Positions 9,979 to 43,739 of a stretch of DNA of 53,295 bases are shown here, in pieces (position 1 is the first letter of the stretch; every line of letters begins with the position of its first letter). The notes under the pieces are model-generated. The model did not search any database and was not told the origin of the DNA. It saw nothing but the letters and a program-made list of their open reading frames with translations. A program made the position numbers and the translations under genes. This stretch comes from Bacilli bacterium (GTDB lineage Bacteria > Bacillota_I > Bacilli_A > RFN20 > CAG-826), in the NCBI GenBank assembly GCA_017450325.1, contig JAFSVB010000183.1:1-53295 (forward strand), given 5' to 3'.

Positions 9979-11145
9979 ATGAAAGGCGAGCGTTTGAAAA
10001 TCGGCATCATCGGCGCTTCGGCGTCTGGCATCTACTCTGCCCTCCTTTTGGCTTTGTCGGGTAGGGGTTATGAAATCCACCTATTCGACCACGCGGATAA
10101 AATCGGAAAGAAAGTTCTCGCGACTGGAAACGGCCATTGCAACTTTTTGCATAGACCTTTTTCCCCGCAAGCGTATAACGACCCTTCTTTTGTCGAAAGC
10201 CTATGGAAAAGCGTTGGCGAAGAAAAACTACAGCAATATTTGGACGCCCTCGGTATCGAATCGTTCGTTAAGGGAGAACTCGTCTACCCGCTTTCTTATA
10301 ACGCGGCCGCTTTTGTGCGCCACCTCGGCAATCTCTTAGCGAAGAAAGGCATTCGCGTTTCCTTGAACGAGGAAGTCAAGGACGTCGATGGAGGCAGGGT
10401 CGTAACACCCTCTGGGGTTCATGATTTTGACATTGTCATCTTCGCCTTTGGTGGAAAGTCCCAAAGCAACCTCGGTTCCGACGGCTCCTTATTCTCCGTT
10501 TTGGGTAAGCGCGGATATCACATCACCCCGCTTTCCCCTGGTTTATGCCCGCTTCGTTGCGCGGATGTTCCAAAGTCCCTCGCGGGCGTCCGCCATGGAG
10601 CGCTTGTGACCCTAGAAGACGGAAAAGCCCTTTACCAAGAAGATGGGGAAGTCCTCTTTAAGAAAGATGGCATTTCTGGCATCGCGGTGATGAATGCTTC
10701 GTTGCACTTTCAGCCTGGCACCAGGTTACACCTTGATCTCTTCCCGTCGATTAGCAAGGCGGATCTCGCGGAGAAGCTCGCGCGTTCCTTGTCGCAAAAC
10801 GGCGATGATTTCTTGGTGCCATTCGCGGAAAAGCCTCTAGCGGAATTCCTCGCAAATAAGGCAAAAAATGCTGCAAAAACGCCATCAATTTCTGAAAAAT
10901 CCATGCAATTTGCATCTTTGATGAAAGATCTGATCTTCCACCCGATAGAACGCTATGGGTTTGCGGAATCACAAGTTACTTGCGGCGGCGTCGATCTTGC
11001 AAACGTGAACGAACATCTACAAAGCGCCATAGACCCGCGCCATTATTTCGTCGGCGAGTGCTTGAACATCCATGGTTATTGCGGTGGCCATAACCTTGGC
11101 TTTGCTTTGCTTTCCGCCATCGTCGTCTCGGAGGCCATCGCATGA
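9979..11145 (+). CDS. HI0933/BaiN-like FAD-dependent oxidoreductase
   Basis: N-terminal dinucleotide fold KIGIIGASASGIYSALLLA...IHLFD, then KKVLATGNGHCNF. The C-terminus has VTCGGVDL...GECLNIHGYCGGHNLGFA, typical of the HI0933-like flavoprotein family. Confidence 0.75.
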   Translation: MKGERLKIGIIGASASGIYSALLLALSGRGYEIHLFDHADKIGKKVLATGNGHCNFLHRPFSPQAYNDPSFVESLWKSVGEEKLQQYLDALGIESFVKGELVYPLSYNAAAFVRHLGNLLAKKGIRVSLNEEVKDVDGGRVVTPSGVHDFDIVIFAFGGKSQSNLGSDGSLFSVLGKRGYHITPLSPGLCPLRCADVPKSLAGVRHGALVTLEDGKALYQEDGEVLFKKDGISGIAVMNASLHFQPGTRLHLDLFPSISKADLAEKLARSLSQNGDDFLVPFAEKPLAEFLANKAKNAAKTPSISEKSMQFASLMKDLIFHPIERYGFAESQVTCGGVDLANVNEHLQSAIDPRHYFVGECLNIHGYCGGHNLGFALLSAIVVSEAIA

Positions 11146-12572
11146 AATACGTCGTATCAAAAGTTTTCGTAATGCCCGAAGATGGCCCGGCCATCATCCG
11201 CAAGAAAGTCGCACAAAAACTCGGCGTCCGCGTTACGAGTCTCCATGTCGAGGTTCTTTCGAAGCAGTGGTGGAGAGGAAAAACCGGCGGCATGGTCGAG
11301 CTTTGCGTCGAAGCGGAGACCAACGAGTTCATCCATAACACGGCCTACCTTCCTACTTCTTCCGAGATAATCCCCCTTCCTTCGATACAGATGAAATTAA
11401 GCCCCGTTATCGTGGGGTTTGGACTTCGTGGCGCGCTTACGGCCTTTTTGTTCGCGAAGATGGGCTTAAGGCCAATCGTTCTAGAAGAAGGGGAGGAGCT
11501 TGCGCTTCGAGAGGGCAAACAAAAAGATAAGTCTTTTGATTACATCCGCGGAGAAGGTGGTTTGTCCGTCTATTCTGGCCTGCTGTTCTCTCCCCGCGAG
11601 TTAAGCCCTACGATGCGTTCGTTGCTCCAAGAGGAAGGAATTCTTTTCGAAGGCGTCGATGCGCATCAATATCTCCCGGCCGCCTTCCTAAAATCCCTCG
11701 TCAAGAAACTGCACGAGGTCATCCTTGCAAAGGGCGGAACCATCTTGTTTCAGCATAAATACGCCGGCCAAAAGCGTTTCCTTGGGAAACTTCGTGGCAT
11801 TTATTGCGATTATCATAACGAACGGAAACTCATCCGCGCCTCCACGGTCGTCTTTACAAACGGCATGGGTGATGATGAATTCTTTATCGGGTGCTGCATC
11901 GAGTCTTCCCCTCGTCTTTTTAACCAGTTCGTCTATGGCAAAGCCATCGTCGACGCGAAGTTCCCACCTTATTATGCCGAGTCCGTCTTTAAACCAAGGG
12001 GTGGTAGGGAATCCCTGCTGATGACGGGCCTTCCCAAGGCCACCATGCTCGATGTGTTCTCATATGCTTCTTTGCTTGGCGAGGCGCTTGAATTCAACGC
12101 AAAGGGTAAAAACGCGCTCAGTTACGTCGGCGTCTCGGTTTCCATGGAAGAAGGCGTGAGGCTCATGAAAGAGGGCTATGTCTCCGGCAAGCCCTTTGCG
12201 ACGCCTTATTCCACCATCAGCGATTTCTTCTTCCGCCGCGACCCGCTGAAGCTTGGAACCGTAAAGCCAATCAACGCCTCTCGGGTGATTCTGACCTCGG
12301 TCAATCGGCTTCTTGGGAACGCCGTTTCGCCGGAATTGGAAAAAGCCGTCAAACAATTCGGGAAGGCTTTCCCGTACCTTTTGCAAGAAGACGCCCTTAT
12401 CGGAGGACTGGTTCTTCTCAGGGGGTCCAAAAACGCAGAAAACCAAAATATCGGCGCAAAAGACCAATATTTTGTTTCTGTTCGTGCCCGAAAGTCCCTT
12501 GATTTTTCCTTCATCGCCAACGCTGCTTTCCAGTGCGTTTTGGATGTGGCGCATTCGTGCAAAACACATTGA
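11142..12572 (+). CDS. COG2509-type uncharacterised FAD-dependent protein
   Basis: ATGA overlap with the upstream gene. It has a small N-terminal domain, then VIVGFGLRGALTAFLFAKMGLRPIVLEEG (GxGxxG with an acidic end) and GEGGLSVYSG, resembling the FGEGGAGTFSDG block of this family. Confidence 0.6.
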   Translation: MKYVVSKVFVMPEDGPAIIRKKVAQKLGVRVTSLHVEVLSKQWWRGKTGGMVELCVEAETNEFIHNTAYLPTSSEIIPLPSIQMKLSPVIVGFGLRGALTAFLFAKMGLRPIVLEEGEELALREGKQKDKSFDYIRGEGGLSVYSGLLFSPRELSPTMRSLLQEEGILFEGVDAHQYLPAAFLKSLVKKLHEVILAKGGTILFQHKYAGQKRFLGKLRGIYCDYHNERKLIRASTVVFTNGMGDDEFFIGCCIESSPRLFNQFVYGKAIVDAKFPPYYAESVFKPRGGRESLLMTGLPKATMLDVFSYASLLGEALEFNAKGKNALSYVGVSVSMEEGVRLMKEGYVSGKPFATPYSTISDFFFRRDPLKLGTVKPINASRVILTSVNRLLGNAVSPELEKAVKQFGKAFPYLLQEDALIGGLVLLRGSKNAENQNIGAKDQYFVSVRARKSLDFSFIANAAFQCVLDVAHSCKTH

Positions 12573-33521: not shown

Positions 33522-34526
33522 ATGGCAAATAAAGCCGAAAACAAAGTCGAAGAGATCAAACTCCCCAACCCGTTCGAACCTGTGAGGATCGGCATCGTCG
33601 TCAACGACGAGACTGAGAACTATGCGAAAATCGTCGCCAGCCCGCTTGAAAGGGGCTTCGGCATCACCCTTGGCAACGCGCTTCGCCGCGTCTTGCTAAG
33701 CGCTCTCCCCGGCGCCTCCGTGGTCGCCGTCCAAATCGAGGGCGCCCGTCACGAATTCACCGCTCTTAAGGGCGTTGAGGAAGACGTCACCGCGATCATC
33801 CTCAACCTCAAGGAACTCGTTCTCAAGATCGACGACAACTCTTCCGACCTCAAGCGCATCGAAGTCGACGTCAAGGGACCCTGCGTCCTCAAAGCCGGCG
33901 ACCTCGAGCTCCCCGCCTTGGTCTCCTGCTGCAATCCCGACCTCGAGATTGCGCACCTCAATGCGGATGCGCACCTCGTCATGACGATCTTCGCCGCCAA
34001 TGGCCGTGGATACGTCACCGCCGAGGCCAACAAGTCCGAGCGCCGCATCGATACCGTCGGCGTCATCACCACCGACTCCAACTACTCGCCGGTCGTCAAA
34101 GTCGCCTATAGCGTCGAGCCGACCCGCGTCCTTCACGATTCGAAGTTCGATGAGCTCACCCTCGAAGTCACCACCAATGGGTCCGTCAAGCCGCACGAAG
34201 CCGTCGCCCTTGCCGCCCAATTGCTGATCTCGCACTTCCAGCAGTTCATCACCCTCGAAGAGAAAGTCCAGGGCATCCGCCTCGTCAAAGAGGAGGTCCG
34301 CACCGAGGACAACAAGTTCCAGAACATGTTCATCGAGGAACTCGACCTCAGCGTCCGTTCCAATAACTGCCTGAAGAGGGCGGGAATCACCACCGTGTTG
34401 GAACTCACCCAAAAGACCGAGGAGGAAATGATGAAAGTCCGCAACCTCGGCAAGAAATCGCTCAAGGAAGTCAAAGAGAAACTCGCGGCCCACGGCCTAC
34501 ACTTCCGCGATTATGTAGGAGAATAA
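33522..34526 (+). CDS. rpoA: DNA-directed RNA polymerase subunit alpha
   Basis: GFGITLGNALRRVLLSALPGASV, and the C-terminal domain IEELDLSVRSNNCLKRAGITTVLELT. Confidence 0.97.
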   Translation: MANKAENKVEEIKLPNPFEPVRIGIVVNDETENYAKIVASPLERGFGITLGNALRRVLLSALPGASVVAVQIEGARHEFTALKGVEEDVTAIILNLKELVLKIDDNSSDLKRIEVDVKGPCVLKAGDLELPALVSCCNPDLEIAHLNADAHLVMTIFAANGRGYVTAEANKSERRIDTVGVITTDSNYSPVVKVAYSVEPTRVLHDSKFDELTLEVTTNGSVKPHEAVALAAQLLISHFQQFITLEEKVQGIRLVKEEVRTEDNKFQNMFIEELDLSVRSNNCLKRAGITTVLELTQKTEEEMMKVRNLGKKSLKEVKEKLAAHGLHFRDYVGE

Positions 34527-34529
34527 ACC

Positions 34530-34913
34530 ATGGCTGCACAAGGTAGAAAGAACGTTCATGGCAAGGCTGGCGTCCGCTTCAAGACCGGCTACACCGCCTC
34601 CAAGAACAAAGCGATGCTCCGCAACGTCGTGACCGACCTCATCGTCCACGAAGAAGTCAAGGTCACCAGCGGTGTCACCAAAGAGCTCAAGAAGCTCGCC
34701 GACCACATGATCACCCTCGCGAAGAGGAACGACCTCCATGCCCGTCGTCTCGCGGCGCAGACCGTCCGCTCCGAAGAAGCCCTCAAAAAGCTCTTCGCCG
34801 AACTCGGCCCCCGCATGGCGAACCGCAATGGCGGCTACACCCGTTCCTTCAAGCTCGGCGAACGTCGTGGCGACGCGGCGGAAGTCACGCTCGTCCGTTG
34901 GTCCGATCGCTAA
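34530..34913 (+). CDS. rplQ: 50S ribosomal protein L17
   Basis: LRNVVTDLIVHEEVKVTSGVTKELKKLADHMITLAK...NRNGGYTRSFKLGERRGDAAE. Confidence 0.96.
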   Translation: MAAQGRKNVHGKAGVRFKTGYTASKNKAMLRNVVTDLIVHEEVKVTSGVTKELKKLADHMITLAKRNDLHARRLAAQTVRSEEALKKLFAELGPRMANRNGGYTRSFKLGERRGDAAEVTLVRWSDR

Positions 34914-34934: not shown

Positions 34935-34958
34935 AGGCGTCTCCTGTAGGCGCCTTTT
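34935..34958 (+). terminator. Weak candidate terminator after rplQ
   Basis: AGGCG...CGCCT 5-bp stem plus an inner CC/GG pair, followed by TTTTC. It is short and imperfect, so read-through into the next gene is plausible. Confidence 0.35.
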
Positions 34959-35134: not shown

Positions 35135-35156
35135 TCGAAAATTGTTAGGAGCATTC

Positions 35157-38012
35157 ATGATCAACGTCTTTATCAGCTATGGACATAACGACTATGACCA
35201 CGTCGCGCGCCGCATCGTGGAGGATCTAAGGGCGCGGGGCGACCTCGATGTTTTCTTCGACGTCGATTGCCTTGAGCGCGACGATTGGGAACAACTCATC
35301 ACCCAGGCCATCGAACGGTGCGATTATTTCGTCTTCTGCGTGAGCCAAAAATCCATCAGCCGCGACGGATATTGTCTCAATGAATTGTCGCGGGCTTGCG
35401 AGCTTAAGAAGACCTGCATCCCCTTGATGCTCGATGAGTCTTTCGTCCCCCTTTCCATTACGCGCCTGCAGCGGATTTTCTTCAATCGCTGCTGCAGCCT
35501 CGATAAGACCATCATCGAGGAAGTCTACGAGCCGAGCCTGCAGAAACTCATCAAGATCGTCACGGGCCAGGAAACACTTGGCTTCTATAACAAAGACATC
35601 GTCATCGAGGACCAACTCCAGACCTTCGACCCCTATGAAATCGTTCAGAATTCTCTTGATTTCGAAGGGCGCGACGCCTTCTTCAAGGACTTCGAGGAAT
35701 GGCTTAATAATCCAAGCGCCCTCCCGTTATATTTACTCGAAGCCGCTCCTGGCGTCGGCAAGACGGCGATGGCTTCGGCTTTGGCTACGCGCTATACCGC
35801 TTCGGTCGCCGGCATCCATTTCTGCGTCCATAATAACGCCGCGAAGACCAACCCCAAGAAAATCATCCTTTCGCTCGCTTGCCAGCTTGCTTATCGCTCC
35901 CCTGATTACCAAGAGACCCTGGCGGATATCCTCAAGAAAGAAGGGGGAGGCGAAGAGGGGGCGAAACGCCTATTCGAAATCTTCATCATTGAGCCATGTC
36001 GCAAAATTAAGTTCGATTCTGCACAGATTTTCGTCATCGACGGCTTGGATGAAGCGGTGGCGAATGGCAAGAACGAACTCGCGGAGATCATCGTCGCGAG
36101 CCAAGGCGCGCTTCCTTCTTGGCTACGCTTCCTCGTCACCTCCAGGCCCGAAGAAGATGTGCGCGGCTATTTCCAGGCATGCCACCGTTATGCGATGGAA
36201 GAATCTAGCGCCGAGAATAACGCCGACATCCGTCGTTTCTACGATAAGGCCTTTCAGTCTTATCACCCCGATGAGAAGTCCATGCAACTGCTCATGGAAA
36301 AGACCCATGGCTCATTTCTTTACGCCAGCGTCATCGTCAAATCGGTGAAGGCGAGGGAACTAGACATCCATAACGTCGAGAGTTTTCCAAACGGCATCTA
36401 TTCCTACTACAAGATGTGGTTCCATCGCATCTTTGATGACGGGCGGATTCCCTATGAAAAAGTCCGCTCCATCTTGTCGTTATTAAGCGTCGTCCAAGCG
36501 CCTCCAGATGTGTCCTTCCTCGCCGATGCGGCCTCGATGGAAGAAAAAGACGCCTATCGTTATGTCGATGCGCTTTCTTCTTTCTTGCGCGTGCAAAACG
36601 GCCTCGTCCGCCCACGTCATAAATCCATCATGGATTGGCTGACCACGCCGTCAATCTGCCCGAGCGAGTATCTCGTTTTGCCTAACGACGGCTATAAACT
36701 TCTTTACGCCTATATCAAAAAAGTCCGCGAGGCGGGCCGCGGCTGGAAGACCAATTACTATGTCATCCACGAATATAGCCGCTGCCTCCGCAACCTCAAA
36801 CTCTACGACGAACTTTGCTCGGTGATGCAGGATAGCAAGTACCTGCTCTCTTGCCTGAAGTCTCCTTTCTATAACTTATATGAAGGACTAGAGGAATACA
36901 TGATTAGCCTCGCTTGTCTCTATGCGGTCGACGAGGACTATTGCTTCGACGTCTACGATTCGGAGTGTTTTGCCTCAATCCTAGGCTCCTACCGCATGAA
37001 AATCTATAACGCGGGCTATTTCCTCGAGCTCCGCACCTGCGGCTTTGAGGATTATCTCTCCGAGAAATACGGCAGCAAAATCGGCGACAACATCGACTAT
37101 GAAATCGGCGTCGTCCATTTCTTCTATATCTCGTTGAACTTCCAAAAGGCGTCCAAGCGCCTTGCCGCGCTTGTGGCGAAGCACCCCTTAGACACCCTCG
37201 ACCTCGACCAACGCTCCGAGATTGAGCGCATGATGCTTCTTACTTACCGCAAGGAAGCGTTATTTGGGCAGATGGAAGAGGTGGCCCCCGCTGCCATCGC
37301 GGATGCGCGCGCTTCCAATAACGCATTCGAGGAATCCTTGGATTATCTCACGATGTCCAAGGTCTATTGCCGCGAACTCAAGAAGAAAGAATCCTTCGAA
37401 GCGGCGGAGGAAGCGGTGCGGATCCTTTCCGAGCAAATCGAGGCGGAGACGGACGAAAGCAATACCCAGATGGGCGACCATCTCTTCCTCGCCGAGGATT
37501 ATCGCGTCTATGCGGACGCGGCGATTTGGCATGGAGAATACGACCTTGCGGCGAACCTTCTTGGCAAGGCGCAGGCCATCTATACGCTCTATCACACGGT
37601 GGATCGTTATTATCCGCGTTTCCTCTATACGTCGCTTTTCTTGGAGATCGCTCGTCATGGCGAGACCAAGCGGATTGAAGAACTTCGCACGAAGCTCGAG
37701 AAAGTCCTTAGCAGCAGCAAAGATAAATACGATAAAGCACAGTTCCTATTCTTAGACGCGCTTTATTATTTCTTAGAGGGCAAGAACAATCCGGAATCGC
37801 TTCAAAAAGTGGAGCCGCGGCTAAAGCAAGCCATCGCCTTCGACAAAGACATCAGCGTGCCCCTAGAGGCCCTCGAGGCAAAATGCCTGATGAACCTCTA
37901 TGACGAAGCGTGTGACCGTCCCGCCCGATTTAACGACAAACATAACGAATATACGGATGTCTGGATTGCCTACGTCGAGCAAAAGATCCGGGAATGGAGG
38001 CAAAATCGATGA
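35157..38012 (+). CDS. TIR-NACHT-helical repeat STAND NTPase (bacterial NLR-like; candidate anti-phage defence protein)
   Basis: The track ORF begins at TTG 35142; ATG 35157 lies 5 nt after AGGAG. TIR_2-like N-terminus VFISYGHNDYDHVARRIVEDL...DVFFDVDCLERDDWEQLITQAIERCDYFVFCVSQKSISRDGYCLNELSRA, with putative catalytic Glu76 (GAA 35382-35384). NACHT motifs: Walker A EAAPGVGKTAMA (Lys202, 35760-35762), Walker B IFVIDGLDEA, and signature LVTSRPEE. The C-terminal ~500 aa are helical and TPR-like (for example AEDYRVYADAAIWHGEYDLAANLLGKAQAIY). Confidence 0.85.
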   Translation: MINVFISYGHNDYDHVARRIVEDLRARGDLDVFFDVDCLERDDWEQLITQAIERCDYFVFCVSQKSISRDGYCLNELSRACELKKTCIPLMLDESFVPLSITRLQRIFFNRCCSLDKTIIEEVYEPSLQKLIKIVTGQETLGFYNKDIVIEDQLQTFDPYEIVQNSLDFEGRDAFFKDFEEWLNNPSALPLYLLEAAPGVGKTAMASALATRYTASVAGIHFCVHNNAAKTNPKKIILSLACQLAYRSPDYQETLADILKKEGGGEEGAKRLFEIFIIEPCRKIKFDSAQIFVIDGLDEAVANGKNELAEIIVASQGALPSWLRFLVTSRPEEDVRGYFQACHRYAMEESSAENNADIRRFYDKAFQSYHPDEKSMQLLMEKTHGSFLYASVIVKSVKARELDIHNVESFPNGIYSYYKMWFHRIFDDGRIPYEKVRSILSLLSVVQAPPDVSFLADAASMEEKDAYRYVDALSSFLRVQNGLVRPRHKSIMDWLTTPSICPSEYLVLPNDGYKLLYAYIKKVREAGRGWKTNYYVIHEYSRCLRNLKLYDELCSVMQDSKYLLSCLKSPFYNLYEGLEEYMISLACLYAVDEDYCFDVYDSECFASILGSYRMKIYNAGYFLELRTCGFEDYLSEKYGSKIGDNIDYEIGVVHFFYISLNFQKASKRLAALVAKHPLDTLDLDQRSEIERMMLLTYRKEALFGQMEEVAPAAIADARASNNAFEESLDYLTMSKVYCRELKKKESFEAAEEAVRILSEQIEAETDESNTQMGDHLFLAEDYRVYADAAIWHGEYDLAANLLGKAQAIYTLYHTVDRYYPRFLYTSLFLEIARHGETKRIEELRTKLEKVLSSSKDKYDKAQFLFLDALYYFLEGKNNPESLQKVEPRLKQAIAFDKDISVPLEALEAKCLMNLYDEACDRPARFNDKHNEYTDVWIAYVEQKIREWRQNR

Positions 38013-38797
38013 ACGAACGCATAAAACCCTTCCTTTTTGAGTCCTATGAAAAGGCGAAGATAATCCTCTTGGGACTATCCTCGGAAGCGGTGTGCCATAA
38101 AAGCGCGAACGACCTCCTCACCAAGGCCGATTTGGCGTTAAACGACTTCTTCATCCACGCGATTCAGGAAGCCTTCCCCGAGGCTTGCATCATCGCCGAG
38201 GAGAGCGAAAACGGCACCTTGACCGATGCTTTGACGTTCATCGTCGACCCGCTTGATGGGACGTGCAATTTCTCGCGTGGCGTGAAGATGCATGGCATCC
38301 AAATCGCGGTGATGGAGCAAAAAGAATGCGTGGCCTCGTTGATCGGGCTCCCGCATTTTGATTTGGTCTATTACGCGGAAAAAGGAAAAGGCGCTTACCG
38401 CAATGGCGAGCGGATTTTCCTTGATAAAAACATCGCGCACGAAGATGGCATCCTTTCGTTAAGCGACTTCTATCACGATGAGAAAGATATCGCCTTTGAG
38501 GATCAATATCGCCTTGTTTCTTCCTTGCAGGACGACTTCCTAAAGACCCGCTTATACGGAGCTTCTTGCTATGACTTCGCCGCATTATCCGAGAGCCAAT
38601 CGCAGGCATATATTTGCTATTACCGTTGCATCTGGGACATCGCCCCGGGCTTATTGCTCGCTTTAGAAGCGGGGGCGGTGGCGAAGCGTCTAAATGGCGA
38701 GCCATATCAATATGGCGATCAATCCATCGTTGTCGCGAACTGCGCGGACACATTGGAGCATATCCTGAAAAAGGCCAAACCTTTCCTGAGGAAATAA
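38009..38797 (+). CDS. Inositol monophosphatase / CysQ / FBPase-superfamily phosphatase, translationally coupled to the TIR-NACHT gene
   Basis: ATG 38009 overlaps the upstream TGA (ATGA); an in-frame ATG also exists at 37994. Motifs: IIAEESENG, FIVDPLDGTCNF, and CIWDIAPGLLLALEAGA (WDxAxGxxxxxEAGx). Confidence 0.85.
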   Translation: MNERIKPFLFESYEKAKIILLGLSSEAVCHKSANDLLTKADLALNDFFIHAIQEAFPEACIIAEESENGTLTDALTFIVDPLDGTCNFSRGVKMHGIQIAVMEQKECVASLIGLPHFDLVYYAEKGKGAYRNGERIFLDKNIAHEDGILSLSDFYHDEKDIAFEDQYRLVSSLQDDFLKTRLYGASCYDFAALSESQSQAYICYYRCIWDIAPGLLLALEAGAVAKRLNGEPYQYGDQSIVVANCADTLEHILKKAKPFLRK

Positions 38798-38839
38798 AGT
38801 AGACAATATAAAATTGATGGCCGTTTTGCGGTGGAATTT

Positions 38840-39306
38840 TTAGATTGGGCAAGAAGGGATAGGAAACTCCCTTCTCTCATAATGCGTCAGGTCATCCAGA
38901 AGGAACGGCAGGGCGAAATGAGGCAAGGAACGATAGAAGGAACCAATACCAAAATTGTTCGCCATGATCTTATAGCATGTGTAGTGGTGGTAGGGCGTCG
39001 TATTCTCGACGAGGCTTTTGATAGAACCGTTCGTGGACTTTGCCTCAAGTAGAGTAATGCCGTCCTTGGACTCGAGGACAAAGTCGATTTTTTATGCTTT
39101 AGGCTATTCGCGTAATAGTACACGCCATGGTTTTGGGGTTGGAGCGCGGAATGGCCATATTTAAATTCAAAAGACAAAAATGGTATTTTTTGAAAAGCCT
39201 GCCATCGTATCCTTTGGGGAAATGGTTTAAAGAACATAGAGGCAATATCCTCTATGGAACATGTTATGGGAAAAAGAAACGCAAAGGTCGCGCGAGATTT
39301 ATGCAA
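38840..39306 (-). pseudogene. Truncated, frameshifted remnant of a DUF4143/COG1373-type AAA ATPase gene (C-terminal third only)
   Basis: Reverse-strand translation gives ...SIEDIASMFFKPFPQR...NHGVYYYANSLKHKK. After a -1/+1 shift at an A6 run (about 39087-39092) it continues KIDFVLESKDGITLLEAKSTNGSIKSLVENT...LPHFALPFLLDDL, with the stop at 38842-38840. The YYY..(E)IDFVLE...EAKS block is typical of the restriction-endonuclease-like C-terminus of DUF4143 ATPases. There is no P-loop part and no intact start. Confidence 0.45.
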
Positions 39307-39514
39307 AGTGATTTTGGTATGAATTTTGCTTCATATTTCCAAAAATAATAGGGTTTTGCAGTATATATTTCGTTATTTAAAACGAAGGAGAAGAAGCGCT
39401 GAAAAGTTAACTATAGATAACATTCTTATAGCCATCAAAAAATGCTAGCGCACACATATGCGCGTTTATAAAATAGTCGCGTAACGCCACGAAAAGTGGC
39501 ACGGAGGTTTACGC

Positions 39515-39997
39515 ATGGCAATCAAGCCTGAAGTTGTGCAGGGTGTCAAAGACATTTGCGATTCGTACGCGAATGAGCCCTCGCCGCTGATGATGATCCT
39601 CTCCGCCGTCCAGAAGAAGTATGGCTACATTCCTCTGGAGGTGCAGCAGATCATCTCTGAAAAGACGGGCATCCCCGTCGCCGAGATCTATGGAGTAGTC
39701 ACCTTCTATTCCTTCTTCTCACTCAAACCCAAGGGTAAATATGTCTTGGGCATCTGCCTTGGTACCGCTTGCTACGTCAAGGGTTCCCAACAGGTCGTCG
39801 ATAAGTTCTCTTCTTTGCTCGGCATCCAGCCGGGCGAAACGACCAAAGACGGATTATTCACGATTGAAGCCATCCGCTGCATCGGCGCTTGCGCTCTTGC
39901 GCCGGCGATGTCGGTCAATGGCAAGGTCTTCCCGAAGGTCACCCCGGACCAGGTTGGCAAGATCATCGATGAATATCGCGCTCTGGAGGCTGCTTAA
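39515..39997 (+). CDS. NuoE-like [2Fe-2S] subunit of NAD(P)H-dependent/bifurcating [FeFe]-hydrogenase (HydC/HndA type)
   Basis: Thioredoxin-like ferredoxin motifs CLGTACYVKG and CIGACALAPAMSVNG. 160 aa. Confidence 0.9.
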   Translation: MAIKPEVVQGVKDICDSYANEPSPLMMILSAVQKKYGYIPLEVQQIISEKTGIPVAEIYGVVTFYSFFSLKPKGKYVLGICLGTACYVKGSQQVVDKFSSLLGIQPGETTKDGLFTIEAIRCIGACALAPAMSVNGKVFPKVTPDQVGKIIDEYRALEAA

Positions 39998-39999
39998 TC

Positions 40000-41913
40000 A
40001 TGGAAAGAATCACTTCTCCCTCGTGCTTAGAAAAGCACATCGGCGAATGTAGCGAAGCCCTCAAGGCCAAGCTCGAAGGCCAAGGCGGTAAGCGCGCGGT
40101 CGTCGTCTGCGGCGGCACGGGCTGCATCGCCAACAATTCCGTCGATATCGAAGAAGAACTCCGCAAGGAAATCAAGGCGCACGGACTTGAGGATCAGATT
40201 TCGCTCAACCACGTCGGTTGCTTCGGCTTCTGCTCCCAGGGTCCCTTCGTCAAGATCTTCCCGGAGGACACGCTCTACCGCGCCGTCAAGGTCTCCGACG
40301 TCAAAGCCATCGTCGAGAAGGACCTCATTGGCCATGAGATTTGCGAGAATCTCCTCTACGTCGACCCGACCACCAAAGAAAAGGTTCAGCGTCAGGACGA
40401 CATCAATTTCTACAAGAAACAAATCCGTATTGCCCTTCACGGCTGCTCCCTCATCAATCCGGACCTCCTCGAGGAAGCCCTTGGTTATGATGGATTCAAA
40501 GGCCTGAAGCGCGCGCTCACCACCATGACCCCGCAGGAAGTCATCGACGAAGTCCTTGCTTCTGGCATCCGTGGCCGTGGCGGCGGTGGATTCCCCACCG
40601 GCCGTAAGTGGCAGTTCGCCGCCAACATCAAGGCGGATCAGAAGTACGTGGTCTGCAACGGCGACGAGGGCGACCCCGGCGCGTTCATGGACCGTTCCAT
40701 CCTCGAAGGCAACCCCTTTGAGGTCATCGAAGGCATGATGATCGCCGGCTATGCGTTCGGCGCTTCCGAAGGCTACTTCTACGTCCGTGCCGAATACCCG
40801 ATTGCCGTCTCGCGTCTGCAGCGCGCCATCGAGGATATGGAAAAGGTCGGCCTGCTTGGCGACAACATCCTCGGTACCGATTTCTCCTTCCGTGCCCACA
40901 TCCGTTTGGGCGCCGGCGCGTTCGTCTGCGGCGAAGAAACCGCTCTTCTGAACTCCATCGAGGGCCAGCGCGGCATGCCTCGCCCCCGTCCGCCTTTCCC
41001 CGCCATCAAAGGTCTTTGGGGAAAGCCGACCTGCGTCAATAACGTCGAGACCTTGGCTCAGATCCCCTTCATCCTCCGCGAAGGGGCGGCTAAGTTCGCG
41101 TCCATTGGCACCGAAGGCTCCAAAGGCACCAAAGTCTTCGCCCTCGGCGGCAAAGTCAACAACGTCGGCCTCGTCGAGGTCCCGATGGGCACCACGCTCC
41201 GCGAGCTCATCTATGACATCGGCGGCGGCATCCCCGGCAACAAGAAATTCAAAGCCATTCAGACCGGCGGTCCTTCCGGCGGCTGCTTGACCGAGAAAGA
41301 CCTCGATACCCCGATCGACTACGACACCCTCGTGGCCCGTGGCTCGATGATGGGTTCTGGCGGCGCCATCGTCATGGACGAAGATAACTGCGCCGTCGAC
41401 GTCGCCCACTTCTACATGTCCTTCATCTGCGACGAATCCTGCGGTAAGTGCTCGCCCTGCCGTATCGGCACGAAGCGCCTCTATGAGATGCTCACCGACG
41501 TCACACAAGGCAAAGGCACCGAGAAGACCCTTGAGGATATGCGCGACCTCGCGACCGTCATCAAGAACGGCTCCCTCTGCGCCCTCGGCCAGACCGCGGC
41601 CAACCCGATTCTCTCGACGATGAACAACTTCCCCGAGGAATATCGCGCCCACGTCGTGGACAAGAAGTGCCCCGCCCACGTCTGCAAGAAGCTCATGGCC
41701 TACGTCATCGACAAGACGAAGTGCGTCGGCTGCACCCTTTGCTCCCGCAACTGCCCCGTCTCTTGCATCCACGTCACCGATGTCCCCGCCAAACCGATGG
41801 TTCCTGGCAAGGTCATCCCTGGCAAGTTCGCCCACGAAATCGACCAGAGCAAGTGCATTAAGTGCGGCTCTTGTATGTCCGGCTGCCGCTTTGGCGCCAT
41901 CGAGAAGAAATAA
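40000..41913 (+). CDS. NuoF-like flavoprotein subunit (HydB/HndC type) with N-terminal [2Fe-2S] and C-terminal 2x[4Fe-4S] domains
   Basis: VVVCGGTGC...CFGFCSQGP. GRGGGGFPTGRKW (FMN). CNGDEGDPGAF (NADH). ESCGKCSPCRIG (N3 cluster). CVGCTLCSRNCP and CIKCGSCMSGC. Confidence 0.92.
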   Translation: MERITSPSCLEKHIGECSEALKAKLEGQGGKRAVVVCGGTGCIANNSVDIEEELRKEIKAHGLEDQISLNHVGCFGFCSQGPFVKIFPEDTLYRAVKVSDVKAIVEKDLIGHEICENLLYVDPTTKEKVQRQDDINFYKKQIRIALHGCSLINPDLLEEALGYDGFKGLKRALTTMTPQEVIDEVLASGIRGRGGGGFPTGRKWQFAANIKADQKYVVCNGDEGDPGAFMDRSILEGNPFEVIEGMMIAGYAFGASEGYFYVRAEYPIAVSRLQRAIEDMEKVGLLGDNILGTDFSFRAHIRLGAGAFVCGEETALLNSIEGQRGMPRPRPPFPAIKGLWGKPTCVNNVETLAQIPFILREGAAKFASIGTEGSKGTKVFALGGKVNNVGLVEVPMGTTLRELIYDIGGGIPGNKKFKAIQTGGPSGGCLTEKDLDTPIDYDTLVARGSMMGSGGAIVMDEDNCAVDVAHFYMSFICDESCGKCSPCRIGTKRLYEMLTDVTQGKGTEKTLEDMRDLATVIKNGSLCALGQTAANPILSTMNNFPEEYRAHVVDKKCPAHVCKKLMAYVIDKTKCVGCTLCSRNCPVSCIHVTDVPAKPMVPGKVIPGKFAHEIDQSKCIKCGSCMSGCRFGAIEKK

Positions 41914-41927
41914 GGAGGGGATGAATC

Positions 41928-43739
41928 ATGGAAAACGTCGAAATGATCAATATCAAAATCGAAGGCAAAATCTATAGTGTCCCGAAGAACATGACCGTCC
42001 TCGAGGCGGCCCGCCTTTGCGGATACAACATCCCCACCCTCTGCTACTGGAACCATGGTCATAACTCCTTGGCTTCCTGCCGCGTCTGCTTGGTCGAAAT
42101 CGCGACCGCTCGCGGTGGCAAACTCTTCGCGTCCTGCGTCTATCCCGTCGCGGACATCCCCGCCGAGAAGGGCTTCGAAATCAAAATCTCGAGCCCCATG
42201 GCCGTCAAAGCGCGCCGCGCCTCGGTGGAACTCCTTCTTTCCAACCACTCCAAAGATTGCCAGACCTGCGTGAAGAACGGCCATTGCGAACTCCTTCACG
42301 TGGCCGGCGTCACCGGTGCCCGCGACAACGTCTTCGAAGGCGAAAAGACCGCGACCACCTATGACGAATGCGCCCCTGGCATCATCCGCGATACCTCCAA
42401 GTGCATCCTCTGCGGCCGCTGCATCGAGCGCTGCAAAGAAGCCCAGGGCATCGGCATCCTCGGCTTTGAGAAGCGTGGCTTCAACACCATCGTTGGCCCC
42501 GCTCAGAACGCTTCCTTCGCGAAGGTTCCTTGCCTCCAGTGCGGCCAGTGCATCAACGTCTGCCCGACCGGTGCGCTCTCCGAACACCGCGAAATCGACC
42601 TCGTCGACAAGGCGATGGCCGAAGGCAAATACGTCGTCGTCCAGACCGCTCCGGCCGTCCGCGCCGCCATCGCCGAGGAATTCGGCCATAAGATCGGCGA
42701 GCAAAACGGCACCGGCAGGATGGTCGCTGCGCTTCACCGCCTTGGCTTCTACCGCGTCTACGATACCAACTTCGGCGCGGACCTCACCATCATGGAAGAG
42801 GCGACCGAGTTGCTCCACCGTATCCAAGGCAAGGGCGTCCTCCCGCAGATCACCTCGTGCTCCCCGGGCTGGATCAACTACATGGAATTCTTCTATAGCG
42901 ACCTGATTCCGAACGTCTCCACCTGCAAGTCCCCGCACGAAATGGAAGGCGCGATCATCAAGTCCTATATGGCCGAAAAGCACGGCCTTAAGCCGGAAGA
43001 CATCTTTGTCGTCTCGGTCATGCCCTGCACCGCGAAGAAGTATGAAGCCGACCGTAAGCAGAACGCGGCGGTCAAGGGTCTCCCCGATGTGGACGCTGTC
43101 CTTACCACCCGCGAACTCGCGGTCATGATCAAGCGTGCCGGTATCCTTTGGGATCAGCTTCCTGAAGAGGAATTCGACCAAGATCTCCTCGGGCAATACT
43201 CCGGCGCTGGCGCCATCTTCGGCGTCACCGGCGGCGTCATGGAAGCGGCCCTTCGTACCGCGTACCATGCCCTCACCGGCGAAGAATACGGCCCCATCGA
43301 GTTCCACGAAGTCCGTGGCCTCGAGGCCGTCAAGGAAGCCACGATCGACATCAAAGGCACCGTCGTGAAAGTCGCGGTCACCTCGGGCATGAAGAACGCG
43401 AAGAAACTCCTCGATGACATCCGCGCGGGCAAGTCCGATTACACCTTCATCGAGATCATGTGCTGCCCCGGCGGCTGCATCAACGGCGGCGGACAACCCT
43501 TCGTCAAGCCGTCCATGCAGACCAACGAAGACCCCGACATCCTCGATACCTATCGTCAGAAGAGAGCCGCCGTTCTCTATAACATCGATAAGGAATTGCC
43601 GCTTCGTCAGTCCCATAACAACCCGGACATCATCAAGCTCTATGAGGACTTCCTCGGCGAGCCGTGCTCCGAGAAGTCGGAAGAACTCCTCCACACCACC
43701 TATGTGGCGGATCGTCCTTGCTACATCGACGAAGAATAA
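41928..43739 (+). CDS. hydA: [FeFe]-hydrogenase catalytic subunit HydA (M3-type with N-terminal 2Fe-2S and FeS domains)
   Basis: N-terminal IKIEGKIYSVPKNMTVLEAARLCGYNIPTLCY. CILCGRCIERC and CLQCGQCINVCP. H-cluster motifs TSCSPGW (variant of TSCCPxW), VMPCTAKKYE, and EIMCCPGGCINGGGQP. Confidence 0.92.
   Translation: MENVEMINIKIEGKIYSVPKNMTVLEAARLCGYNIPTLCYWNHGHNSLASCRVCLVEIATARGGKLFASCVYPVADIPAEKGFEIKISSPMAVKARRASVELLLSNHSKDCQTCVKNGHCELLHVAGVTGARDNVFEGEKTATTYDECAPGIIRDTSKCILCGRCIERCKEAQGIGILGFEKRGFNTIVGPAQNASFAKVPCLQCGQCINVCPTGALSEHREIDLVDKAMAEGKYVVVQTAPAVRAAIAEEFGHKIGEQNGTGRMVAALHRLGFYRVYDTNFGADLTIMEEATELLHRIQGKGVLPQITSCSPGWINYMEFFYSDLIPNVSTCKSPHEMEGAIIKSYMAEKHGLKPEDIFVVSVMPCTAKKYEADRKQNAAVKGLPDVDAVLTTRELAVMIKRAGILWDQLPEEEFDQDLLGQYSGAGAIFGVTGGVMEAALRTAYHALTGEEYGPIEFHEVRGLEAVKEATIDIKGTVVKVAVTSGMKNAKKLLDDIRAGKSDYTFIEIMCCPGGCINGGGQPFVKPSMQTNEDPDILDTYRQKRAAVLYNIDKELPLRQSHNNPDIIKLYEDFLGEPCSEKSEELLHTTYVADRPCYIDEE

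Follow-up and report, generated by a model that had tools for sequence, protein, structure and literature searches.

A bacterial NLR-like TIR-STAND protein encoded in a conserved two-gene cassette with an IMPase-family phosphatase that may gate it

The DNA analyzed here, referred to as the window, is a 53,295-nt contig of a Bacilli bacterium (GenBank assembly GCA_017450325.1, contig JAFSVB010000183.1, forward strand; GTDB lineage RFN20, CAG-826). It contains a gene that had been recognized as encoding a TIR-NACHT-TPR-like STAND protein of 951 amino acids and had been read as a single-gene, Avs- or bNACHT-type anti-phage protein. The open reading frame (ORF) is real, but the single-gene reading is incomplete, the gene being the first half of a conserved two-gene cassette whose second half encodes a phosphatase of the inositol monophosphatase (IMPase) family. 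This partner, overlooked in the original prediction, is the most informative feature of the locus. Comparative genomics, not biochemistry, shows the pair to be a module that is inherited and expressed as a unit, with the phosphatase as an integral part of it. TIR-NACHT-TPR proteins are an already known kind, and the dedicated phosphatase is the new part. We give roughly even credence to the view that the locus is a two-gene NLR-like module, in which a protein made up of a TIR domain, a NACHT-clan STAND switch and a TPR-like sensor would be gated by a translationally coupled IMPase-family phosphatase, preferably on the input side. The elements of the cassette are as follows.

35157 to 38012, plus strand: TIR-STAND-sensor gene, one intact ORF of 951 aa plus stop
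35147 to 35151, plus strand: Shine-Dalgarno sequence AGGAG, read from the sequence, 5 nt before the ATG at 35157
35157 to 35561, plus strand: TIR domain, aa 1 to 135, with the presumed catalytic Glu76 in an invariant GYCLNEL block
35667 to 36206, plus strand: NACHT-clan P-loop NTPase, aa 171 to 350, with GVGKT at 199 to 203, DGLDE at 295 to 299 and TSRP at 327 to 330
36210 to 36656, plus strand: helical and winged-helix-like STAND arm, aa 352 to 500, from the secondary structure of the AlphaFold2 (AF2) model
36657 to 38009, plus strand: all-helical TPR-like sensor domain, aa 501 to 951, from the AF2 model, Foldseek and profile searches
37996 to 38000, plus strand: Shine-Dalgarno sequence GGAGG of the phosphatase gene, inside the 3' end of the TIR-STAND gene and 8 nt before the ATG at 38009
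38009 to 38797, plus strand: IMPase-family phosphatase gene, 262 aa, Pfam Inositol_P; its ATG at 38009 overlaps the TGA at 38010 to 38012 (ATGA)

The ORF containing the TIR-STAND gene runs uninterrupted from a TTG at 35142 to 38012 and has an internal ATG at 35157, which was preferred as the start because of the AGGAG that precedes it. A protein identical to its product is present in public metagenome data (P0001). For the phosphatase gene there is an alternative upstream ATG at 37994; however, the most likely start is the ATG at 38009, which gives a product of 262 aa, the length of the public homologue P0121 (96% identical). Judged from the ATGA overlap, the two genes are translationally coupled, and they are almost always co-transcribed.

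To find homologous loci, one genome per GTDB species was scanned (185,579 species genomes), which yielded 39 loci, all of them in metagenome-assembled genomes (MAGs) of gut or rumen Firmicutes. One of them, at 97% identity, belongs to an Erysipelotrichaceae MAG that is probably close kin of the organism of the window. The TIR-STAND gene is interrupted in two MAGs, where it forms two ORFs or is divided between contigs (L034:795-3166; L037 and L038), and these copies may be pseudogenes or assembly breaks. Adjacency was counted in the 33 complete loci with enough flanking DNA, window included, which span 31 to 97% identity. An orthologous IMPase gene lies directly adjacent and on the same strand in 30 of them (the window and 29 of the 32 others), with gaps that are typically of -4 to +25 nt. 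The first two homologue neighbourhoods examined already showed this layout. The IMPase gene comes first in an Anaeroplasma locus (L036), a reversal of the usual order. By contrast with this constancy, the other flanking genes all differ, even among close relatives, as in these examples:

window: rpoA-rplQ upstream, hydABC-like genes downstream
L049 (63% identity): ksgA upstream, ispE downstream
L001: a carbonic anhydrase gene upstream, a GFO_IDH gene downstream
L004: a PTS EIIC gene upstream, an MntP gene downstream

Clustering of the ORFs that flank the 38 related loci revealed only one further recurrent neighbour, a metallo-beta-lactamase (MBL)-fold hydrolase gene described below. The two proteins of the cassette also diverge together, the pairwise distances between TIR-STAND proteins and those between their IMPases being correlated (r = 0.72 for 378 pairs, and r = 0.79 within the larger clade). 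The reverse test, in which a profile of the partner IMPase was run on metagenome contigs, gave the same picture: every IMPase scoring 320 bits or more abuts the sensor wherever upstream DNA exists, and generic IMPases (below 175 bits) never do.

These data bear on the simplest alternative, namely, that the protein is a single-gene TIR-STAND defence protein and the IMPase a passenger or housekeeping hitchhiker, which we regard as very improbable. In its favor, bNACHT and Avs proteins are usually single-gene systems (Kibby et al., 10.1101/2022.07.19.500537), and the distant TIR-NPHP3_N proteins of other phyla that served as a control (P0055 and P0102) stand alone in their loci, with no phosphatase neighbour. 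Two further observations weigh against the module. One locus, L023, is without a same-strand partner, and P0162 (44% identity), an IMPase of the same clade, is encoded on its own on 16 contigs, next to dnaG-rpoD and PPDK genes. Because the P0162 sub-branch stands alone, a housekeeping function is conceivable for the enzyme, either now or in its ancestry, and the idea that the IMPase clade is exclusive to the module was rejected. Against a mere passenger, however, stand the adjacency kept while both flanks change, the overlapping start and stop codons, the inverted order in L036, the co-divergence of the two proteins and the unrelated phosphatases that fill the slot elsewhere, one of them fused in frame.

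The product of the second gene is, on the evidence of its motifs, a catalytically intact IMPase-family phosphatase. It scores 141.6 bits with Pfam Inositol_P (PF00459; cutoff, 27), and the EE, DPxDGT, WD and E..G metal-binding and catalytic motifs of the fold are all invariant in the partner clade, which is monophyletic with respect to generic IMPases and has conserved pocket residues of its own. The AF2 model (pLDDT, 96.8) gave template modelling (TM) scores of 0.86 to 0.89 to IMPase and SuhB structures, and superpositions on TM1415, SuhB, human IMPase and the Staphylococcus aureus IMPases gave values of 0.78 to 0.89. In accordance with this, profile comparison placed the enzyme closer to classical IMPase/SuhB proteins than to either CysQ or HisN. 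No NCBIfam equivalog was assigned to either cassette gene; the scores of the phosphatase were far below the cutoffs for HisN (99.1 versus 275), CysQ (75.9 versus 229), SuhB (68.2 versus 332) and NADP phosphatase/NAD kinase (36 versus 493). Fold and profile comparison thus puts it among the promiscuous IMPase/SuhB enzymes, a placement from which its substrate is not deducible. In other genomes, IMPase-HAD fusions, each a single chain with two phosphatase domains, were observed beside a gene for a thioredoxin-like [2Fe-2S] ferredoxin (L071:87-1535, L072:1049-2485 and L073:951-2318).

Loci that lack the IMPase usually have another enzyme in its position, which argues that the slot is functional and not merely syntenic. 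In L031 (28% identity) the slot holds an overlapping gene for an HAD phosphatase of the Hydrolase_3 family (225 bits), and in L045 an overlapping gene for an Sfp-like protein that, with borderline Pfam scores, is a phosphopantetheinyl transferase (PPTase) rather than a phosphatase. A 1,218-aa protein, P0277 (L050:2043-5699), which is found on seven independent contigs, combines the same sensor with an in-frame C-terminal His_Phos_1 domain (134 bits) whose RHG motif is intact; its N-terminal 250 aa contain no recognizable TIR domain. In all three of its contigs shown, the P0277 gene is followed by an overlapping 48-aa ORF. Two distant TIR-less relatives have a PHP phosphoesterase gene directly upstream; these are 829-aa STAND proteins of a Roseburia MAG and of the Petralouisia muris isolate NM01_1-7b (L039:8937-13715 and L040), and a gene for a 435-aa multi-pass membrane protein lies downstream of each.

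In 11 loci a gene for a 225-aa MBL-fold hydrolase, which the window lacks, lies directly upstream of the TIR-STAND gene, so that a three-gene operon results:

L007: 9304 to 9993
L012: 9290 to 9964
L044: 9316 to 10008
eight further loci: same arrangement

The HxHxDH motif of this hydrolase is intact, its Lactamase_B_2 score is above the cutoff, and it reaches 43 to 46 bits with the model of the anti-Pycsar protein Apyc1 (cutoff, 50). In L053 and L056 an Apyc1-like MBL enzyme is the sole partner and replaces the IMPase. The first of these loci (L053:1-12511; also L054 and L055) is a multi-TIR island. In L053 and L055 a relative of the window protein is split into a 113-aa TIR ORF and an 836-aa STAND protein, followed by the Apyc1-like MBL gene. 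The same island contains an unrelated TIR-NB-ARC/nSTAND3-TPR protein with an IMPase gene starting 9 nt later, an association that is an independent recruitment, since this IMPase reaches 106 bits with the profile of the clade and so is of the generic type. It also contains a large RyR-domain protein and a 585-aa TIR_2-RuBisCO_large fusion, an unusual combination for a TIR domain, with a His_Phos_1 gene after it. In L056 the order is RyR/TrkA_N, TIR-nSTAND5, TIR-NPHP3_N and Apyc1-like MBL.

Enzymes of a sister clade of the partner IMPase follow DUF5919 proteins, carrying either a TIR-like domain (344 to 384 aa) or a HEPN domain. The starts overlap or nearly so, and the proteins range from 344 to 400 aa:

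L070: 74 to 1883, TIR-like-DUF5919 and IMPase
L078: 2395 to 4257, TIR-like-DUF5919 and IMPase
L079: 129 to 2068, TIR-like-DUF5919 and IMPase
L048: 6775 to 8801, HEPN-DUF5919 and IMPase

No paper on DUF5919 was found in a literature search, nor any paper that describes a pairing of TIR or STAND proteins with an IMPase, a phosphatase or DUF5919. A TIR-free array was also observed in L076 (2406 to 6765), where co-oriented genes encode a Nudix protein, a 123-aa nucleoside-deoxyribosyltransferase-like protein (weak match), a His_Phos_1 protein, an MBL enzyme and an IMPase, the same enzyme families as those found around the TIR genes.

By comparative genomics, then, the second position of the cassette is one that calls for a phosphoesterase. 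At least three unrelated phosphomonoesterase folds (IMPase, HAD and the fused His_Phos_1) occupy the conserved, coupled slot, with PHP, MBL and PPTase enzymes elsewhere, and this points to a phosphorylated small molecule in the control or the output of the switch. A stricter rule, under which the phosphatase would accompany the sensor alone and in no case the TIR domain, was weakened: the apparently TIR-less P0255 has a separate TIR ORF, and other TIR architectures carry phosphatases of their own.

The domain assignments made for the first protein of the cassette were then confronted with profile searches, with a structural model and with an alignment of the window protein and 52 full-length homologues (32 to 70% identity, about 941 to 970 aa; n = 53). 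The predicted TIR_2-type domain was confirmed. Pfam TIR_2 (PF13676) matched residues 4 to 110 with 66.7 bits (gathering cutoff, 28), F5, S7, Y8 and G9 of the FISYG motif and C73, N75 and E76 of the GYCLNEL block were invariant, and in the AF2 model residues 1 to 135 form a flavodoxin-like TIR fold followed by a low-confidence linker. Searched against the PDB, the family TIR profile matched the bacterial TIR 7uxr (1e-9), TIR-1/SARM1 (about 1e-7) and AbTIR (7e-7), as well as SPARTA TIR-APAZ, Cat1, Roq1 and RPP1. The proposal that Glu76 occupies the catalytic position of NADases holds in part: the residue is invariant and is aligned under the catalytic Glu of Caenorhabditis elegans TIR-1/SARM1, but AbTir-type alignments are shifted by 3 residues, placing C73 under their Glu, and this ambiguity of register counts against the assignment. 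Glu76 is very probably, though not provenly, the catalytic residue.

For the NTPase, the best Pfam model was NPHP3_N (PF24883, NACHT clan), with 82.3 bits over residues 178 to 330 (cutoff, 24.8), whereas NACHT itself (PF05729) gave 19.4 bits over residues 196 to 356, below its cutoff of 26.7. G199, G201 and K202 of Walker A, D295, L297, D298 and E299 of DGLDE, and R330 of TSRP are invariant. GVGKT and DGLDE also agree with the NACHT signature (Walker A GxxGK[ST] plus D[GAS]hDE), of which the Walker B part separates NACHT from other STAND proteins (Kibby et al., 10.1101/2022.07.19.500537). The NTPase claimed as NACHT is thus upheld at the level of motifs and clan but not by the NACHT model. In the arm that follows, the AF2 model contains a unit of helices plus a hairpin at residues 433 to 496; HTH_TANC1 reached only a weak 13.2 bits in the window protein but a significant 35 to 43 bits in the sensor-sharing relatives P0255, P0258 and P0268.

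The C-terminal region had been described as about 500 aa of helical, TPR-like repeats. The AF2 model, built on the family alignment (mean pLDDT, 87.8), shows an all-helical solenoid at residues 509 to 950, about 450 aa in length, but no Pfam TPR model matched the window protein at E ≤ 1, and TPR_1 and TPR_12 gave faint matches in only a few homologues. The alpha-solenoid character of TPR proteins was found in the model through Foldseek matches of the C terminus to solved structures, namely, an archaeal STAND-TPR protein (6mfv), the LGN TPR domain (TMt, 0.51 to 0.56), NprR (TMt, 0.67) and MalT (8bob). With the whole protein as the query, Foldseek returned Avs3 (3.5e-10), RPP1 over about 550 columns, Apaf-1, MalT, CED-4 and NLRP3. 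The sensor is rare: among 1.84 billion representative proteins, its profile picked out only about 70 clusters (E ≤ 1e-10), and in these the domain is always C-terminal, in STAND proteins of 830 to 1,200 aa. Taken together, profile matches, invariant motifs, model and fold matches bear out the effector-STAND-sensor architecture and support the ORF as a bacterial NLR-like protein with a predicted TIR enzyme, a NACHT-type STAND switch and a helical sensor; among the profile families named in the original prediction, TIR_2 passed, as did NPHP3_N for the NACHT clan, while PF05729 and the TPR families failed.

As for the mechanism, we infer NADase activity, oligomerization, phage protection and the phosphatase substrate alike, by analogy, and this too has to be set against the proposal. 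From the behavior of Avs, bNACHT, Apaf-1 and plant TIR-NLR proteins, the C-terminal helical domain would hold the NTPase off. Binding of a trigger would lead to nucleotide-dependent oligomerization, as expected from the same families, and this would gather the N-terminal TIR domains, so that Glu76 could cleave NAD(P)+. Depletion of NAD+, or a product derived from ADP-ribose (ADPR), would then cause growth arrest or abortive infection. The switch would be gated by a small phosphorylated molecule, and the phosphatase would hydrolyze it. In an input-side role, the enzyme would control how much of a phosphorylated ligand the sensor encounters; in the simplest form, the ligand would be cleared and the switch kept off until infection raised the ligand or blocked the phosphatase.

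This input-side role is the reading that we favor, although tentatively and with well below even credence. It is suggested by the way the slot stays with the STAND-sensor or regulatory part when one effector is exchanged for another (TIR, HEPN or the unassigned N-terminal domain of P0277), and by the phosphatase being fused or coupled at the C terminus of the sensor. That unrelated folds replace each other suggests, moreover, a shared substrate rather than a shared surface. However, the argument leans mainly on HEPN-DUF5919 and P0277, and the many TIR-specific pairings fit the output side equally well. In its most specific form, the proposal is that an NLR-like receptor is gated by a small phosphorylated ligand and has a phosphatase dedicated to it that controls the amount of this ligand, by clearing or by creating it, or that the phosphatase docks on the TPR domain and is itself the subunit that is guarded or that senses; in this form we deem it unlikely. 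If true, it would describe a metabolite-gated immune switch, with the same logic served by IMPase, HAD, histidine-phosphatase, PHP and MBL enzymes and by TIR or HEPN outputs.

On the output side, which we rate as rather unlikely, the phosphatase would act on the TIR reaction and not in sensing, either feeding its substrate or processing or clearing its product. It could supply the TIR reaction with NAD+ from NADP+, or it could mature or remove a phosphorylated product of the TIR domain, for example 2'-phospho-ADPR, pRib-AMP-like molecules or 2'/3'-nucleotides. In a further variant, the Apyc1-like MBL hydrolase would first open cyclic or diester bonds, for maturation or reset of the signal, as the ring nucleases of type III CRISPR systems do. 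The IMPase model is in fact close to promiscuous IMPases, among them S. aureus IMPase-I and IMPase-II, and 2'-AMP is a bound ligand in one SaIMPase-II structure (5dw8). NADP(H) is likewise a substrate of SaIMPase-I, and some IMPase-family enzymes convert NADP+ to NAD+. The invariant Cys73, three residues before Glu76, recalls the WCLxEL motif of plant TIR domains, a motif linked to 2',3'-cyclic nucleotide monophosphate synthetase activity. Most partners, furthermore, adjoin TIR proteins of several unrelated architectures (TIR-NPHP3_N, TIR-NB-ARC-TPR with an IMPase, the TIR-RuBisCO-like protein with His_Phos_1, and the split TIR/STAND pair with MBL). The islands in which they do so carry large RyR-domain proteins, and RyR domains bind or cleave 2'/3' cyclic ADPR (cADPR) according to a 2026 report (PMC13232231). 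Against the output side, the sister IMPase pairs with a TIR-less HEPN-DUF5919 protein, P0277 keeps its fused phosphatase without a recognizable TIR domain, the cassette is without a conserved effector that would read a TIR signal, and an IMPase would find no phosphomonoester to cleave in the stable cADPR isomers.

Whether the module of sensor and phosphatase serves in immunity at all was considered in the light of its genomic setting. Its site directly after the ribosomal operon was as predicted, with rpoA (33522 to 34526) and rplQ (34530 to 34913) just upstream, and the two are set apart by one further feature:

34935 to 34955, plus strand: terminator-like hairpin and T-run right after the rplQ stop, with an 8-bp stem, 5 GC pairs and a TTTCTC tail; found by a pattern scan, as a consensus match only

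This putative terminator would set off the ribosomal/rpoA operon from the cassette. Several findings of this kind do not favor a defence role. Housekeeping genes, not defence islands, surround the cassette in the window and in several homologous loci (after rplQ, between ksgA and ispE, and near dnaA), and the window contains no other defence genes. The expectation of a bNACHT or Avs match was not borne out by PADLOC (v2), which found only matches at the level of the TIR domain; the TIR-STAND protein matched SAVED_TIR (4e-8), Aga_TIR and ThsB, with a weak STAND_TPR match (7e-5), and both cassette proteins together with ten neighbour or partner proteins gave nothing beyond this level. No copy was found on phages or plasmids by tblastn of phage and plasmid collections, or on viral contigs in a scan of IMG/VR. 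Searches for a mobile-element signature (Rfam, tRNA and flanking repeats) were all negative. The G+C content of the cassette (51 to 52%) equals the window average and was uninformative as a sign of horizontal acquisition.

Several of these findings would suit a non-immune function, in which a STAND-controlled metabolic or cell-fate switch of gut Firmicutes would couple a phosphorylated metabolite to NAD(P)+ turnover, for instance on entry into dormancy or stress. The housekeeping neighbourhoods and the lack of mobile-element signs and of phage or plasmid copies agree with it, the sensor is not more divergent than the rest of the protein (mean column identity, 50% versus 53%), and MalT-type STAND proteins, one of the fold matches, are metabolite-gated regulators. 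We nevertheless consider it improbable. The distribution is patchy, the insertion site varies even between copies that are 63 to 100% identical, and some loci sit among defence-like or prophage-like genes: L044, with a second TIR protein and a Macro protein nearby; L045, surrounded by methyltransferase, PIN, CI repressor and Nudix genes; and the multi-TIR islands L053 and L056. To our knowledge, the bacterial TIR-STAND proteins tested so far have all been anti-phage. Thus, architecture, patchy distribution, varied insertion sites among close relatives and defence- or prophage-like company support a defence role for the module, which by analogy would be anti-phage.

Downstream of the phosphatase gene, a 717-nt spacer (38798 to 39514) with a G+C content of about 46 to 49%, the lowest in this part of the window, contains only short ORFs and no Rfam match, and it leads to a hydrogenase operon whose G+C content is markedly higher than that of the cassette:

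39515 to 43739, plus strand: HydABC-type three-gene set for a thioredoxin-like 2Fe-2S protein, a NuoF-like flavoprotein and the large subunit of an [FeFe]-hydrogenase; G+C, 59 to 61%

Elsewhere in the window (11142 to 12572), a 476-aa ORF that matched nothing in Pfam (E ≤ 1e-5) lies between a gene for an HI0933-like flavoprotein and further metabolic genes.

TIR-STAND, or NLR-like, proteins are a recognized class of bacterial immune receptors. The phosphatase pairing may reveal how such switches are gated. As TIR and HEPN proteins of other types are paired in this way in gut Firmicutes as well, the pairing may be a sign that, in the gut and rumen microbiome, TIR immunity is more broadly surrounded by nucleotide- or metabolite-processing enzymes that have escaped annotation. 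The 262-aa enzyme should be easily purified, and substrate screening could address the question of the ligand directly, while the P. muris strain, being in culture, would allow a relative of the sensor to be studied.

Among known systems, the protein resembles bNACHT proteins in its N-terminal effector, its NACHT module with D[GAS]hDE (DGLDE here) and its C-terminal repeat sensor, and the accessory domains of bNACHT proteins include both TIR and TPR (Kibby et al., 10.1101/2022.07.19.500537). It differs from them in that no PADLOC model of a tested bNACHT matches, that its best NTPase model is NPHP3_N and not NACHT, and that its sensor is a rare family of its own. The phosphatase partner is a further difference, since the word "phosphatase" occurs 0 times in the bNACHT preprint (10.1101/2022.07.19.500537) and 0 times in a 2026 STAND survey. 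With Avs proteins it shares the effector-STAND-helical sensor logic, and Avs3 (PDB 8dgc) was the best Foldseek match (E, 3.5e-10); the likeness does not, however, go beyond the common STAND/TPR scaffold (TM score over the query, 0.21; identity, 11%) and gives no sign that the sensor of the window recognizes terminase or portal proteins. We know of no Avs system with a phosphatase partner.

The order of TIR domain and NTPase matches that of the plant TIR-NLR protein RPP1 over about 550 columns, and the TIR profile, as in SARM1/TIR-1, puts Glu76 under the catalytic Glu. The GYCLNEL block resembles the plant SWCLxEL. Plant TIR-NLR proteins such as RPP1 and Roq1 differ, however, in having an NB-ARC rather than a NACHT-clan NTPase and a leucine-rich repeat rather than a TPR-like sensor, and identity to them is very low. 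To Thoeris the TIR domain is related at the domain level, through the weak PADLOC matches to ThsB, and TIR chemistry on NAD+ would be the expected output in both. Here, however, the TIR domain is fused to its own STAND sensor, and no ThsA-type effector (SIR2/SLOG or Macro) was found in the cassette or in the window, or recurrently in the 38 related loci.

The phosphatase, for its part, can be compared with the ring nucleases of type III CRISPR systems, NrN, phage Apyc1 and phage RyDEP, which are likewise small hydrolases beside, or targeting, a generator of nucleotide signals, and the Apyc1-like third gene of 11 related loci is akin to these signal-clearing enzymes. The partner in the window is, in contrast, a predicted IMPase-fold phosphomonoesterase, which none of those systems uses. 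Within the IMPase/SuhB/CysQ/HisN/NADP-phosphatase superfamily (PF00459) it has the full fold and all the metal-binding motifs, with TM1415, SuhB and human IMPase as the nearest solved structures, yet it fails every NCBIfam equivalog cutoff and belongs to a clade of its own with clade-specific pocket residues.

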